A stretch of 54,583 nucleotides of DNA from Candidatus Sericytochromatia bacterium (GTDB lineage Bacteria > Cyanobacteriota > Sericytochromatia > S15B-MN24 > UBA4093). The stretch lies in contig JAKFCT010000034.1 in NCBI GenBank assembly GCA_036676495.1, forward strand, positions 1-54,583. Reading direction: 5' to 3'. A program made the position numbers and the translations under genes. The notes beneath the pieces are model-generated. The model did no database searches. It worked only from the letters and a program-made list of their open reading frames with translations, and was not told the origin of the DNA. The number at the start of each line of letters is the position of its first letter. Position 1 is the stretch's first letter. Of this stretch, positions 10,930 through 19,470 are shown piece by piece.

Positions 10930-11087
10930 CGCGGCTCGGGCTTCCGAATGCCGTCGACCGAGTAGCCTACTTGCTGTAGACCTCCGGCTTGAGGATGCCC
11001 ACGAAGCGCCCGCGGCTCAGGCATCCGAATGCCGTCGACCGGTAAGCCTACTTGCTGTAGACCTCCGGCTTGAGGATGCCCACAAAG
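10930..11087 (-). repeat. Tandem duplication (period 81 bp) of the hpt 3' end plus downstream sequence
   Basis: 10930-11006 matches 11011-11087 with about 6 mismatches. It includes the last ~12 codons and the stop codon. Confidence 0.95.
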
Positions 11088-11644
11088 GGAAGATTGCGGA
11101 ACTTCTGATCGTAGTCGAGCCCGTAGCCCACCACGAACTGATCCGGAATCGTGAAGCCGACGTACTTGACCGGAACCTCGACCAGGCGGCGCGCCGGCTT
11201 GTCGAGCATGGTGCAGATCTCCAGCGACGCCGGCCGGCGCTCCATGAGCGTCCGAACCAGGTAGGAGAGCGTGAGGCCGGTGTCGATGATGTCCTCGAGG
11301 ATCAGGACATGCCGACCGGTGATGGTCTCGTCCAGGTCCTTGAGGATCCGCACCACTCCCGAGCTGCGCGTGGAGGCCCCGTAGGAGGAGACGGCCATGA
11401 AGTCGATTTCGAGCGGAAGATCGATCGCGCGCATCATGTCGCCGAAGAACAGCGCCACGCCCTTGAGCACCCCGATCAGCACCACGTCCTTGCCGGCATA
11501 GTCGACGGCGATCTGCTCACCGAGCTCCCGAATGCGATCCTTGATCTGCTCCTCGGAGAGCAGGACGGACTCGATGGCGTCGACGAGGCGGGGATAGGGA
11601 AAGCTCACGGGAGACTCCTTCAGGGTCGATTCAGGGGCGGACAT
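11048..11644 (-). CDS. hpt: Hypoxanthine phosphoribosyltransferase
   Basis: VLKG, VSSY, VLILEDIIDTGLTL and FVVGYGLD motifs. Confidence 0.96.
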   Translation of the reverse strand: MSAPESTLKESPVSFPYPRLVDAIESVLLSEEQIKDRIRELGEQIAVDYAGKDVVLIGVLKGVALFFGDMMRAIDLPLEIDFMAVSSYGASTRSSGVVRILKDLDETITGRHVLILEDIIDTGLTLSYLVRTLMERRPASLEICTMLDKPARRLVEVPVKYVGFTIPDQFVVGYGLDYDQKFRNLPFVGILKPEVYSK

Positions 11645-11665
11645 CGGTTCTCCAAATCTCCGGCG

Positions 11666-12019
11666 CTACCACTCGAAGTGGTACTTCGCCGTCATCTGCA
11701 TGAGGTCGCGGTGGCAAAGCAACTTGACCCGGACGTCGGGGTAGAGCTCCCGCATCTTCCGGATCTTCCGGTTCTTGCGGGTGACCAGGCGCTGGCGCAT
11801 GGCCGTCAACTCGATATAGATCCCCTCCACCGGGAGGTAGAAGTCGGGTGTGAACTGCTCGACGATCCGCCCGTCCTCTGCCCAGCGCAAGGGAAAGCTT
11901 CGAGGCTCGTATTCCCAGGCGATCTGATAGAAGTCGAGAAGCTTCGCGAACTCCCGCTCTGCGGGATGCGCGAAGCGCGTGGAGTCGAGCTTCTTATCAC
12001 CATCACCTGGTGCATCCAC
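11666..12019 (-). CDS. Small PD-(D/E)xK-like nuclease-fold protein
   Basis: E..FA.LL....I.WEYEP...FTPDFYLP...YIELT pattern. GTG start at 12019 follows a GAGGAG RBS. Confidence 0.7.
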   Translation of the reverse strand: MDAPGDGDKKLDSTRFAHPAEREFAKLLDFYQIAWEYEPRSFPLRWAEDGRIVEQFTPDFYLPVEGIYIELTAMRQRLVTRKNRKIRKMRELYPDVRVKLLCHRDLMQMTAKYHFEW

Positions 12020-12246
12020 GACCCGTCTCCTCGGAGCGTCCGACGCCCCCCTGGCCACGACGCTCGGCACCCCCTGGCGGGGCAGCGGCGTGCGAAGGGT
12101 GGGTTCAGATGCTCACAGCGGCCCTTGCCTCCCTTCGAATCCTAACAAATTTGCAAGCAGGCTGCCAGGGGGGAAACCCGGAAGGCCGAAACCTGAGCGC
12201 AAAGGACCGTGCGGCCACGCAGCCCGTTTTCGACCGCGCGCTGCGC

Positions 12247-12347
12247 AAACCTCCTATCGAAAGGCCTTTGGCCCAATTACTCGGTTATCGCACTGACGTG
12301 CCGGAAACCGCATATCGAAGGGCCCTTGGCCCAGTAAATCGGTTATC
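12247..12347. repeat. Imperfect 43-bp direct repeat (period 58 bp) in a divergent promoter region
   Basis: AAACCTCCTATCGAAAGGCCTTTGGCCCAATTACTCGGTTATC versus AAACCGCATATCGAAGGGCCCTTGGCCCAGTAAATCGGTTATC. Confidence 0.85.
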
Positions 12348-16920: not shown

Positions 16921-16926
16921 CGCCGG

Positions 16927-18099
16927 ATGCGGTCCTGGGCGCGCCTCCTCCTCTTCGCTTGCCTGCTGACGGCCGGACTCACCGGCCTCGGCGCCGCCCG
17001 GGCCGAAGCCACGACCCTCCGGATCGGCATCGTCGACGGAGCCGCCTCCTTGCGCTTCGCCACCTCCGCTCCCGCCCGCATCCTCGACGCCCAGGGCCGC
17101 AGCGTGGCCACCATGAAGCCCTCCGAGGCATGGAGCGCCACGCCCTCCGGCACCCTGCAACTACTCTCCCCCACGGGGAAAGCCCTCCCCGTCCCCAGCC
17201 CATGCCGGATCGTCCCCGTTGATGCCAGCGGCATCCCCTTGGTCTTCATCGGCGATCGCTGGTACCGCGGGGACCTCGAGATCCGCCTTCAAGACGGCCA
17301 GATCGTCGCCGTCAACCACGTGCCGCTCGAGGACTACCTCTACGGGGTCGTCCCCGCTGAAATGCCCTCCCACTGGCCCCTCGAAAGCCTCAAGGCCCAG
17401 GCCGTCGCCGCCCGCACCTACGCCGTCGCCAACCGCGGCAGCTACGGCAGCCGGGGCTACGACCTGAAACCCACGGTCGCCAGCCAGGTCTACAAGGGAG
17501 CCGCCGCCGAGACCTCCCTCTCGAACGCCGCGGTGAACGCCACCCGGGGCCAGGTCGTCACCTACAACGGCAAGGTGATCCGCGCCTACTTCCACGCCTC
17601 GGCCGGCGGCTACACCGAGAGCGCCGACGCCGTCTGGGGCGAGAGCCTCCCCTACTTGCGCCCCGTCCCGGACTTCGATCAACGCTCCCCCAAGTACACT
17701 TGGCAGCGCTCGTACTCGGCCGACGAGATCAAGAACGGGCTCACCAAGATCGGCCAGGACGTCGGCGACGTCATCCGGATCGAACCGCTCCAGCGGGCCT
17801 ATTCGGGACGGGTCACCCGGGTGCGCGTCACCGGCACCCAGGGCATCCGCGAGCTTGCCGGAGAGCAGTTCCGCCATGCCATCGGGCTCTTCTCGACCCT
17901 CTGGAACGTCCTGGGACACCCCCAGTCTGAGGCCTCCCCCTCGCGGTTCTCCTTCGCCGGCCGCGGCCATGGCCATGGGCTCGGCATGTCCCAGTGGGGC
18001 GCCAAAGGGCTCGCCGAGATGGGCTATCCGTACGCCCAGATCCTGCTTCACTACTACCCCTCTGCGCAGCTCAGCATGCTGCCGAGTGACGGACAGTAG
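16927..18099 (+). CDS. SpoIID/LytB domain protein (lytic transglycosylase)
   Basis: LEDYLYGVVPAEMP, KAQAVAARTY and GHGLGMSQWGA motifs plus a signal peptide. Confidence 0.92.
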   Translation: MRSWARLLLFACLLTAGLTGLGAARAEATTLRIGIVDGAASLRFATSAPARILDAQGRSVATMKPSEAWSATPSGTLQLLSPTGKALPVPSPCRIVPVDASGIPLVFIGDRWYRGDLEIRLQDGQIVAVNHVPLEDYLYGVVPAEMPSHWPLESLKAQAVAARTYAVANRGSYGSRGYDLKPTVASQVYKGAAAETSLSNAAVNATRGQVVTYNGKVIRAYFHASAGGYTESADAVWGESLPYLRPVPDFDQRSPKYTWQRSYSADEIKNGLTKIGQDVGDVIRIEPLQRAYSGRVTRVRVTGTQGIRELAGEQFRHAIGLFSTLWNVLGHPQSEASPSRFSFAGRGHGHGLGMSQWGAKGLAEMGYPYAQILLHYYPSAQLSMLPSDGQ

Positions 18100-18110
18100 C
18101 CCTGCCTGGT

Positions 18111-18284
18111 ATGGTGGATAGCGACTGGAGCCGCTGGGCCCTCTACGGAGCGGGCTGGTTCCTGCTTTTCCTCGGAGGGCGCTCTTGGGCCCGCCAGCAC
18201 GGCAGGCCCATCCCCATGGCCTACCTCCTTCTCATCGGCATCCTGATCGTCCTCCAACTTTACTCGGAACTTGCCTTCAAATGA
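18111..18284 (+). CDS. 57-aa two-helix membrane protein (absent from the ORF track)
   Basis: MVDSDWSRWALYGAGWFLLFLGGRSWARQHGRPIPMAYLLLIGILIVLQLYSELAFK. It fills the gap exactly and its stop overlaps the queA start (ATGA). Confidence 0.7.
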   Translation: MVDSDWSRWALYGAGWFLLFLGGRSWARQHGRPIPMAYLLLIGILIVLQLYSELAFK

Positions 18285-19387
18285 GCACCCGCCTTAGCGA
18301 TTACGACTTCGACCTGCCTGAATCCAGCATCGCCCAGCTTCCTGCCGAACGGCGAGACATGAGCCGGCTGCTGGTGCTGAATCGAGCGACCGGCACCCTC
18401 GAGCACCGACGCTTCCGTGATCTCCTGGACTACCTGAACCCCGGAGACCTGCTGATCCTCAATGACACCAAGGTGATTCCCGCACGGCTCCACGGCCATC
18501 GCCCCACGGGCGGCAAGGTCGAGGTGCTGCTGCTCCAGGAGAAGGAGCGCGATGTCTGGGTGGCGCTCGCCCGCCCCGGCAAGAAACTTCCCGTGGGCTC
18601 CGTGGTGCACTTCGGCAAGGCCGCTCCGGCGAGTGACTCCCCGGAAGCCGTGCAGGCAATTCCCGAGCTCAGCGCGGAAGTGCTCGATGTCCTGCCGGGC
18701 GGTGAGCGTCTGATCCGGCTCTCCAGTCATACCGGCGAGCCGACGATGGCCCTGGTGGCCCGTCTCGGGGAGCTTCCCCTGCCGCCCTACATCTCGGGAC
18801 GCCCGGAGGATCCGGATCGTTACCAGACCGTCTACGCCCGGCACGAGGGGGCGGTCGCGGCTCCCACCGCAGGCTTGCACTTCACCCCCGAGCTGATGGC
18901 CGAGCTGGAGCAGCGGGGCACCCGGATCGCCCGGATCACCCTGCACACCGGGCTGGGCACCTTCAAGCCCGTGATGGCCGAGGACATTCGCGAGCACCCC
19001 ATGCACGCGGAATGGTACTCCCTCCCCGAGGAGACGGCTCAGGCGATCCGCGAGACCCGCGCGCGGGGCGGGCGGGTCGTGGCGGTGGGGACCACCGTCG
19101 CTCGGACCCTCGAACACGCGGCCCAGGAGCAGGGCGGCCCGGATCTGCATGCCGCGTCCGGAGAGACCCGGCTCTTCATCTACCCCGGCTACCGCTTCCA
19201 GGTGGTGGATGCCCTGGTCACCAACTTCCACCTGCCGAAGTCGACCCTGTTGATGCTGGTGAGCGCATTCATTGAGCAAGGCGGAGCGGGACGCGACGGC
19301 CGAGAGACGTTGCTGGAGGCGTACCGGGTGGCAATCGCCGAAGGCTACCGGTTCTATTCCTTTGGCGACGCCATGTTCCTGTACTAG
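18281..19387 (+). CDS. queA: S-adenosylmethionine:tRNA ribosyltransferase-isomerase
   Basis: LSDYDFDLP, LPPYI, AAPTAGLHF, TNFHLPKSTL and YRFYSFGDAM motifs. Confidence 0.97.
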   Translation: MSTRLSDYDFDLPESSIAQLPAERRDMSRLLVLNRATGTLEHRRFRDLLDYLNPGDLLILNDTKVIPARLHGHRPTGGKVEVLLLQEKERDVWVALARPGKKLPVGSVVHFGKAAPASDSPEAVQAIPELSAEVLDVLPGGERLIRLSSHTGEPTMALVARLGELPLPPYISGRPEDPDRYQTVYARHEGAVAAPTAGLHFTPELMAELEQRGTRIARITLHTGLGTFKPVMAEDIREHPMHAEWYSLPEETAQAIRETRARGGRVVAVGTTVARTLEHAAQEQGGPDLHAASGETRLFIYPGYRFQVVDALVTNFHLPKSTLLMLVSAFIEQGGAGRDGRETLLEAYRVAIAEGYRFYSFGDAMFLY

Positions 19388-19470
19388 CCCTAATCCACTA
19401 CGGGCCAGACCGTAGCCGCGGGCGCTTGGCGACGCCATGTTCCTGTACTAGCCCTAATCCACCACGGGCC
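19362..19470 (+). repeat. Tandem duplication (period 64 bp) of the queA 3' end plus downstream sequence
   Basis: 19362-19406 matches 19426-19470 at 44 of 45 positions and includes the stop codon. Confidence 0.95.

Follow-up and report, generated by a model that had tools for sequence, protein, structure and literature searches.

How do two unrelated genes come to carry a second copy of their own 3′ end, joined to the first in both cases by the same short sequence? The genes are hpt and queA, and they lie on a stretch of 54,583 nucleotides (nt) from a Candidatus Sericytochromatia bacterium (the window: GenBank assembly GCA_036676495.1, contig JAKFCT010000034.1, here contig C34). The source genome, G000, is a draft of 4,135,875 bases in 106 contigs (65.9% G+C, 92% complete), with a coding share of about 83.5% by rough gene calls; the comparison set comprised 47 genomes of the class, with G001 and G002 as sister species of the same genus and G017 as a member of another family. 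We find that the joining sequence belongs to a motif family dispersed through the genome, and we put at roughly 0.5 the probability that this motif, AGCCGCRGGCGC (usually with a following T), is the invariant 3′ terminus of lineage-restricted, non-autonomous insertion modules of about 13-21, 52 and 100 nt, whose 3′ end is joined before a T and whose other end is joined 0 to about 80 nt off, giving target duplications of variable length.

Duplicated gene ends at hpt and queA

The hpt gene (hypoxanthine/guanine phosphoribosyltransferase-type; 11048-11644 on the minus strand in the list of open reading frames; Pfam Pribosyltran, E 1.7e-26) is intact, with orthologues in G001 and G002 that are 95-96% identical, and in gene sense it ends CTT CCC TTT GTG GGC ATC CTC AAG CCG GAG GTC TAC AGC AAG TAG. 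The first copy of the duplicated segment (11020-11086, minus strand, 67 nt) takes in the last 11 codons, the TAG and 31 nt of 3′ flank with a small hairpin, GGCATtcggATGCC. Two letters, tg, separate it from the junction 12-mer AGCCGCGGGCGC, the motif (11006-11017, minus strand), after which the second copy (10939-11005, minus strand, again 67 nt, with 5 mismatches to the first) opens with TTCGTGGGC and continues through the stop and the flank. Tandem Repeats Finder (TRF) reports the tandem at 10930-11087, with period 81, 2.0 copies and 93% matches. A degenerate motif, AGCCGCGACCGC, was read from the sequence immediately past copy 2 (10925-10936, minus strand), and a further motif-like word, AGCCGTGGGTGC, beyond it (10894-10905, minus strand). 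In the sister species the locus differs: G002 has neither duplication nor motif, and G001 has three copies with GGCCGCGGGCGC at the end of each.

A similar picture emerges for queA (S-adenosylmethionine:tRNA ribosyltransferase-isomerase; 18185-19387 on the plus strand in the same list), which is also intact (Pfam Queuosine_synth, E 5.7e-134, covering residues 37-399 of 400) and ends TAT TCC TTT GGC GAC GCC ATG TTC CTG TAC TAG. Here the first copy (19362-19406, plus strand, 45 nt) consists of the last 8 codons, the TAG and a 19-nt flank, and is followed by an inserted unit (19407-19425, plus strand) made up of a 7-nt filler, AGACCGT (19407-19413), and the same 12-mer (19414-19425). The filler together with the start of the motif has no second occurrence in the whole G000 genome. 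The second copy (19426-19470, plus strand, 45 nt, 1 mismatch) opens with TTGGCGAC and passes into the native 3′ region, where a terminator-like hairpin lies at about 19483-19504. The period is 64, and the locus is not listed by TRF. In all three genus genomes the motif is followed directly by TTGGCGAC and the left boundary is the same, with right ends that differ and copy numbers of 2, 2 and 4; the last copy in G002 enters the native terminator without a motif, and a metagenome contig with the identical 27-nt queA gene end has no duplication.

A preliminary description, made from the letters of the window, had reported both layouts, and they are present in the sequence with periods of 81 and 64, as is the 14-mer that it had found identical at the two junctions (11004-11017, minus strand; 19414-19427, plus strand). 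The extent of that junction has to be redrawn: the constant part is the 12-mer, or a 13-mer with the T, and the final TT belongs to the duplicated segment. The same description had both segments begin within CCTTTG, at a Phe codon, which is true of both G000 genes, though the shared hexamer is partly coincidence because hpt in G001 and G002 reads CCTTTCGTC at the place where G000 has CCTTTGTG, and copy 2 of G000 retains the ancestral TTCGT of the sister genomes.

An assembly artefact is an unlikely source of the gene-end duplications because three separately assembled genus genomes and one genome of another family share the type of structure. Public runs that contain the stretch come from soil metagenomes (Logan contigs; one at a share of 0.96 and two at small shares). 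Their contigs are all short, and among the matches listed no piece bridges both copies and no RNA run appears. One relative's public contig, on reaching 19454, adds 11 other letters and resumes at 19414, a sign that it may have an extra unit.

A dispersed motif with one sharp end

The motif AGCCGCRGGCGC has 176 exact copies in the 4.14-Mb genome and forms the second most abundant 12-mer family, behind words containing HIP1. Within the window there are 14 near-matches to the 14-mer (at most 2 mismatches), as against 1.65 expected and a maximum of 7 in 100 shuffles. A system directed at gene 3′ ends is not supported: 153 of the 176 copies are plainly intergenic. As an aside, all top-frequency 12-mers of G000, a soil genome with 66% G+C, contain GGCGATCGCC, the HIP1 palindrome that is typical of cyanobacteria.

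Similarity among copies stops 2-5 nt 3′ of the motif and reaches upstream for about 50, 100, 115-128 or 164-184 nt, so the motif is the sharp 3′ end both of micro-units (about 13-21 nt) and of repeats of about 52 and 100 nt that resemble miniature inverted-repeat transposable elements (MITEs). Many copies stand alone, in units of about 19-21 nt that consist of 5-8 variable bases and the motif, and others are arrayed, with 20 nt as the commonest spacing of same-strand neighbours. The form of about 100 nt has imperfect inner inverted repeats (GTTGC..CAGCGAGC / GCTCGCTG..GCAAC; 21 copies aligned by eye), and the form of about 52 nt is the same repeat in shortened form. Each of the two has the motif as its outermost 12 nt, at one end only; in the longer form the outermost 12 nt are unlike at the two ends and the motif stands outside the inverted repeats.

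The base after the motif is T at 74% of 87 solo sites and at 91% of 87 repeat-linked sites. Because duplicated segments that start with another base are preceded by an additional T, the inserted constant part, as read from the sequence, is probably the 13-mer AGCCGCRGGCGCT. Its termini are AGC...GCT, and it can fold into a weak GCC-GCR-GGC hairpin that places the variable base in the loop (stem of 3 bp, -1.6 kcal/mol). Inverted motif pairs show no preferred distance, and Rfam matched no family to the repeats at 4 loci (E up to 1). In the main texts of the searchable literature the 12-mer was not found in a relevant context among the matches listed, which were primers or unrelated sequences. 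The same literature, searched for small dispersed repeats and for target duplications of variable length, yielded no precedents beyond those cited below.

We considered whether the 3′-most unit of an array is the youngest, and this was not borne out: a hand count (at most 2 mismatches) gave 11 arrays each way, and a script tally (at most 3 mismatches, with many chance matches) found the 5′ unit better in 32 arrays, the 3′ unit better in 14 and all units perfect in 9. A second type of array also exists, in which the inner units retain only AGCCGC(G) and the repeated stretch, and the full 12-mer is found in the last unit alone (C10:4134-4304, C47:50544-50728, C31:86719, C5:4213, C52:3637 and C100:15129).

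A repeat of the flank beginning 0-3 nt past the motif (score of at least 12) was found at 13 of 174 exact motif sites, compared to 2 of 1000 intergenic controls chosen more than 300 nt away from any motif, an enrichment of about 37-fold. The preliminary description had held that random slippage would not give the same junction twice, and the comparison bears this out; motif-joined duplications beyond the two genes, for which it had suggested a genome-wide search, do exist. A related count gave 14 of 176 motif sites and 2 of 530 random positions, and 29 of 580 sites qualify when one mismatch in the motif is allowed. The layout is constant: native upstream sequence, a segment X, 0-27 nt of filler, the motif, X again and native downstream sequence, with the second copy beginning 0-1 nt past the motif at every locus. 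The length of the duplicated flank runs from none visible, through 7-9 nt in arrays, to 18, 27, 28, 38, 45 and 67 nt.

For instance, at C82:18376 the segment is 28 nt long and holds the start codon of an opposite-strand gene, and both outer sides run on into native sequence. At C23:36902 it covers 38 nt at the 3′ end of an HTH_25 gene, and at C91:65228 it is 27 nt long and the insert contains a degenerate second motif. At queA and at these three loci the insert is found only between two copies of local sequence, and therefore does not come from the duplication of a motif-bearing segment. Other motif-joined cases include a 59-nt unit in 3.7 copies at C23:43431 and several further arrays of 20-21 nt. 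At C82:18330-18440 we also noted that the filler supplies a new AAGGAG ribosome-binding site to the gene, and that a 19-codon upstream frame now begins at the former, displaced start, its TGA overlapping the ATG of the gene itself (ATGA). Two candidates for long target duplications, C10:18489 and C25:12532, were dropped, being better read as adjacent or partly repeated related repeats.

Across the whole genome TRF lists 21 non-genic tandem repeats with periods of 40-150, of which 6 hold the motif and about 5 more adjoin one. At C1:36847-37009 the end of a gene (…CACATGTAG) is duplicated as 59 bp x 2.8 without a perfect motif between the copies, and the last copy abuts AGCCGCGG. The dinucleotide TC is found within 6 nt before copy 1 at 25 of 30 loci (background 0.32; a post hoc count on partly non-independent loci), with TTCCC/T, TTCCT/T and ATCCC/T as typical left boundaries. 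These TC-rich stretches are also the reverse complement of ribosome-binding sites, which may explain the many antisense units just upstream of genes. Matches of 8-mers before a motif with 8-mers after a motif at another locus all come from one composite repeat family. Strand agreed with GC skew at 46 loci and disagreed at 31 (69 uninformative), which is not significant.

The motif is restricted to a few lineages and varies in place between sister species. Counts of the 13-mer in the three genus genomes are 147, 89 and 166, as against 1-4 for a reversed control; one sister genus has 25 and 38 (reversed control 11 and 7) and G017 has 70 (reversed control 38). Four other genomes (G003, G006, G023 and G025) have 10-17, not above their reversed controls, and 38 further genomes of the class have 0-5. 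Empty and filled alleles, which the preliminary description had suggested looking for, exist among the relatives. At C82:18376 the G001 site is empty, G002 has an independent array a few bases away (four times TTCGTCTCT plus the motif), and in G000 the native 5′ leader is on the distal copy. At C23:36902 the events in G000 and G001 are independent, with different left boundaries and three copies in G001, and G002 is empty with a terminator in that place. Neither G001 nor G002 showed a kilobase-sized element between the copies at hpt or queA.

In G017 we looked at 13 loci chosen for neighbouring motifs, so that repeats were to be expected there. Units of 45-53 nt are present at 8 of the 13 (L053 and L056 being probably one locus): those at L047, L048 and L055 contain gene 3′ ends with stop codons, that of L053/L056 holds a gene start and ribosome-binding site on the opposite strand, and the others are leaders of adjacent genes. 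At the remaining loci there are either two adjacent motifs or arrays whose units measure 15-24 nt.

Further units are found in the window itself. A solo unit of about 21 nt (TACCAGT, the 12-mer and TG; motif at 14888-14899, minus strand) lies between two genes and, by alignment, is absent from the orthologous spacer of both G001 and G002. A three-unit array with a 20-nt period stands at the 3′ end of a MITE-like repeat (20789-20842, minus strand). Two units (CTTGG with a degenerate motif, and TCGATCG with the motif; 45829-45859, plus strand, about 36 nt in all) sit just past the ribosome-binding stretch of a minus-strand gene at 44736-45812, and the G001 site is empty; the product of this gene is a flagellar rod/hook-type protein with a weak Flg_bbr_C match. 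Three motif or motif-like units (46311-46376, plus strand) occupy the spacer upstream of the next minus-strand gene, where G002 has different content and G001 has none of them. A motif copy also lies within the 3′ part of a coding region (8931-8942, minus strand). The G001 orthologue of the gene at 8899-10203 has an array of motif units (GAGCCGCAGGCGCTGTCT...) in frame in its C-terminal coding region, readable as protein (EPQALS-type repeats).

Other repeats of the genome stand apart from this family. The window has tandem repeats within coding regions at 7978-8352 and 27797-27943, namely 30 bp x 6, 69 bp x 2.5 and a Pro/Lys/Gln-rich 12 bp x 12; apart from motif-like GAGCCGCAGG words in the first, they show no relation to the motif. 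A separate small repeat family (…GGCTCGGTCCGGTCGGATCGGTCCTCCGCGG…) forms tandem pairs of 40-47 bp at C16:11876-11951 and C24:10772-10864, with the same downstream sequence.

How the duplications may have arisen

Of the three origins offered by the preliminary description, the best fit is a non-autonomous mini-element with very long target duplications. A new copy would have the 3′ end of its motif joined exactly before a T, usually a few bases past a TC-rich (TTCC-like) stretch, and its other end joined at no fixed point, between 0 and about 80 nt downstream of the first joint, so that the DNA between the two joints would come to stand on both sides of the insert as a target-site duplication of variable length. 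The hpt gene would have been struck 11 codons and queA 8 codons ahead of the stop. The upstream copy would have kept each gene complete because the duplication extended past the stop codon, and the downstream copy would be a dead remnant. An insertion near a gene end that brought no long duplication would cut the gene short and so disappear, which may be why long duplications are found precisely there. Unequal recombination between copies would yield (X filler motif)n X, which fits the 2-4 copies seen in three species. We infer that insertion and duplication are one event, that TC-rich targets are preferred and that long duplications are selected for.

Several observations sit badly with such modules. 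The two clean empty-allele sites, 14888 and 45829, have no visible target duplication, and many insertions therefore have none. The repeats of about 100 nt carry the motif at a single end, beyond their inverted repeats, no donor for the fillers (7-27 nt) was found in the rest of the genome, and a target duplication does not explain the arrays whose inner units retain only AGCCGC(G). The native sequence past the last hpt copy opens with AGCCGCG, the start of the motif, and the hpt locus by itself would also fit the tandem duplication of a unit with a motif already in it. The first 4-8 nt of the motif likewise open the native sequence beyond the last copy at C101:5169 (AGCCGCGG), C14:148092 (GGCCG) and C1:36847 (AGCCGCGG), and the right end of queA in G001 falls in AGCC, common to the motif start. 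Matches of this kind at at least 5 loci point to a component of homology or template switching, and not to a plain cut.

The search for an enzyme adds to these difficulties. We found no match to DDE_3, RVT_1, Y2_Tnp, Transposase_31/Rpn or Ku in G000, though as all assemblies are drafts the absence of an enzyme is weak evidence. The sole DDE find is a degenerate DDE_Tnp_1 fragment with unrelated ends. An IS1634-type element of G001 has inverted ends, GCGGGTCTTCGACA, that are unlike the motif, and it does not track the motif: the family (NF033559) has no match in G000 or G017 and is present in motif-free relatives. None of nine gene products encoded between or beside inverted motif pairs is a transposase (2 belong to no family and 7 are housekeeping), and no long element ending in the motif was seen in the draft assemblies, where similarity upstream of it extends for at most 184 nt. 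The preliminary description had suggested looking for a co-occurring RAYT (REP-associated tyrosine transposase, REP being repetitive extragenic palindromic sequences) or other HUH nuclease. Of 31 relatives, 13 have Y1_Tnp, in a distribution that does not cleanly follow motif abundance, and each genus genome has a single RAYT-like gene. In G000 this gene (C48:5933-6415) is flanked by its own canonical REP (GTGG and GGCGGGC CTCTGT GCCCGCC), two copies upstream and one inverted downstream, and the 3.2 kb around it contain no motif at up to one mismatch. The same type of REP seems to recur in the window at 48843-48883, as a 21-bp tandem. A trans-acting transposase, a nicking (HUH-type) enzyme absent from the drafts, or a host function could supply the responsible activity. 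It is also conceivable, if rather doubtful, that an undescribed joining activity, either a nicking or HUH-like enzyme without a recognisable family or host repair, mobilises the 13-nt quasi-palindrome (AGC...GCT) into TC-rich targets and re-copies up to about 100 nt in doing so.

The motif-start matches bring in the main rival account, in which a growing DNA end near motif-like native sequence pairs with a motif copy elsewhere during replication or repair, copies it to its end and stops, for example at a nick or DNA end; it then re-pairs at the home locus, some tens of bases upstream, through a match of 1-2 nt (T, TT or TA), and that stretch is copied twice. Such template switching requires only a motif-specific break or pause and no transposition of a defined element, and we regard it as possible though unlikely, giving it the weight we do because plain cut-and-join does not predict that motif nucleotides follow the last copy (hpt, C101:5169, C14:148092, queA of G001 and C1:36847, with 4-8 nt each). 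Microhomology at both joints, including the T that follows the motif at 74-91% of sites, the varying duplicated length, the missing transposase and the arrays with incomplete inner units and a complete last one all agree with it. It leaves unexplained the unique fillers of 7-27 nt, the plain insertions of 19-21 nt at empty-allele sites without a motif-like seed, and the spread of discrete families of about 52 and 100 nt with the same end; no strand bias relative to GC skew was seen (46 loci as against 31, with 69 uninformative), and it still requires something that makes the motif 3′ end a stop. Both template switching and insertion need a defined end between the C and the T at the motif 3′ end.

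A separation into two unrelated steps, in which a repeat unit lands downstream of a gene, slippage or unequal crossing-over duplicates the region later and the shared junction reflects the abundance of the repeat, we consider improbable. It would give two motifs, and queA of G000, C82:18376 and C23:36902 have one between their copies, C91:65228 has one plus a degenerate one within the same insert, and the last queA copy of G002 has none; nor does it account for second copies that start 0-1 nt after the motif everywhere or for the enrichment of about 37-fold. The degenerate motif after hpt copy 2 and the motif ending each of the three G001 hpt copies do suit it, as do copy numbers that vary between species and the 15 of 21 non-genic repeats (period 40-150) without a motif in the TRF interval, though about 5 of these adjoin one. 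Duplicated gene 3′ ends are a classical mark of tyrosine-recombinase islands, which enter at the 3′ ends of tRNA and protein genes, and the genome does have 5 Phage_integrase matches; hence one might think of integrative elements that were lost and left attL and attR with a short common linker. This reading, the collapsed att scar of the preliminary description, is very improbable: every element would have had to carry a different gene end and yet leave the same 12-mer, merely 14-36 nt lie between the copies at some ten unrelated loci, and the structure is also found at gene starts, in plain spacers and in 20-nt arrays. The 5 matches are on contigs C30, C42 and C67, and the window contig has no recombinase gene, in keeping with the earlier remark that no integrase or transposase is nearby. 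(Three tyrosine-recombinase genes lie within 10 kb at C67:23817-33617, which may be an element of the recombinase-trio type.) Long interspersed nuclear elements (LINEs), which insert by target-primed reverse transcription, show a constant 3′ end, a variable 5′ extent, target duplications of varying length and added bases where the 5′ end is joined, much as here, and the motif could on that model be the 3′ end of a template RNA. We nevertheless hold reverse transcription of transcript 3′ ends, also raised in the preliminary description, to be very improbable: RVT_1 has no match in the motif-rich G000, G001 and G017 (G002 has one weak match inside a 1462-aa frame, and a match is present in several motif-poor relatives), the left ends of the repeat families are discrete and not randomly truncated, and at duplicated gene starts the motif is antisense to the gene.

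If non-autonomous modules do insert in the manner proposed, the target duplication regenerates the gene end that was struck, which would explain how very small repeats can enter the coding sequence at a gene's edges and not destroy it. What is left over, namely surplus gene ends together with newly made ribosome-binding sites and short upstream frames, would be raw material for regulatory change. With dozens of natural events in three sister genomes, the family would offer a tractable case for the origin of long variable target duplications, and it is a trap for annotation, as duplicated ends lead to false short open reading frames and assembly breaks. Were the more doubtful undescribed joining activity true, the 13-nt motif would be the smallest known mobile unit, and in this bacterial order it would regularly give rise to new untranslated regions (3′ and 5′), upstream mini-frames and spare ends.

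Relation to known mobile repeats

Small dispersed repeats are familiar in bacteria from REP and bacterial interspersed mosaic elements (BIMEs), Correia elements and Rickettsia palindromic elements (RPEs), and those of Nostoc were reportedly treated by Elhai and others in 2008. Like these and like MITEs, the motif family is short, non-coding, high-copy, lineage-specific, mostly intergenic and variably present between sisters, and its form of about 100 nt has imperfect internal inverted repeats. Unlike MITEs, its conserved part is a one-sided terminus of 12-13 nt with units down to about 13-21 nt, its target duplications are not fixed in length and reach 67 nt (hpt), and the drafts contain no full-length parent element with motif ends. 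The displaced second gene end downstream of an intact gene recalls attL/attR pairs at gene 3′ ends, except that there is no element or recombinase, unrelated genes share one linker, and the structure extends to gene starts and plain spacers. The family does not fit the defining features of MITEs, REPtrons, the IS1634 family, integrase scars or retroelements.

The comparison also took in REPtrons, which pair REP sequences with a RAYT/TnpAREP HUH nuclease, and IS200/IS605. We know of no REP that yields flank duplications. The motif differs from REPs in that no GTAG or GTGG precedes it in any of 176 copies and its stem is merely 3 bp, and it differs from a REPtron in that the RAYT-like gene adjoins another REP. 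TnpAREP is described as cleaving single-stranded REP DNA at a CT dinucleotide, between the C and the T, beside a hairpin (PMC8266576); to that extent the motif is comparable, as it ends in C, usually has T next and could form a small GCC-GCR-GGC hairpin. Replitron-1 inserts in an orientation set by a short target, with one precise and one fuzzy end and target-site duplications of variable length (PMC10288648), and motif insertions resemble it in their one precise and one variable end and in duplications that vary in length. Unlike the motif unit, Replitron-1 is a eukaryotic HUH copy-and-paste element, kilobase-sized and autonomous, with terminal direct repeats. For IS1549/IS1634, copy-dependent direct repeats of 8-514 bp are described, for which no mechanistic model had been proposed (PMC2266710). 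These elements have their own DDE transposase and measure 1.5-2 kb, as against a motif insert of 12-40 nt, but the direct repeats at motif insertions are long and variable in length as in the IS1634 family, which is the nearest bacterial precedent for a long variable target duplication.

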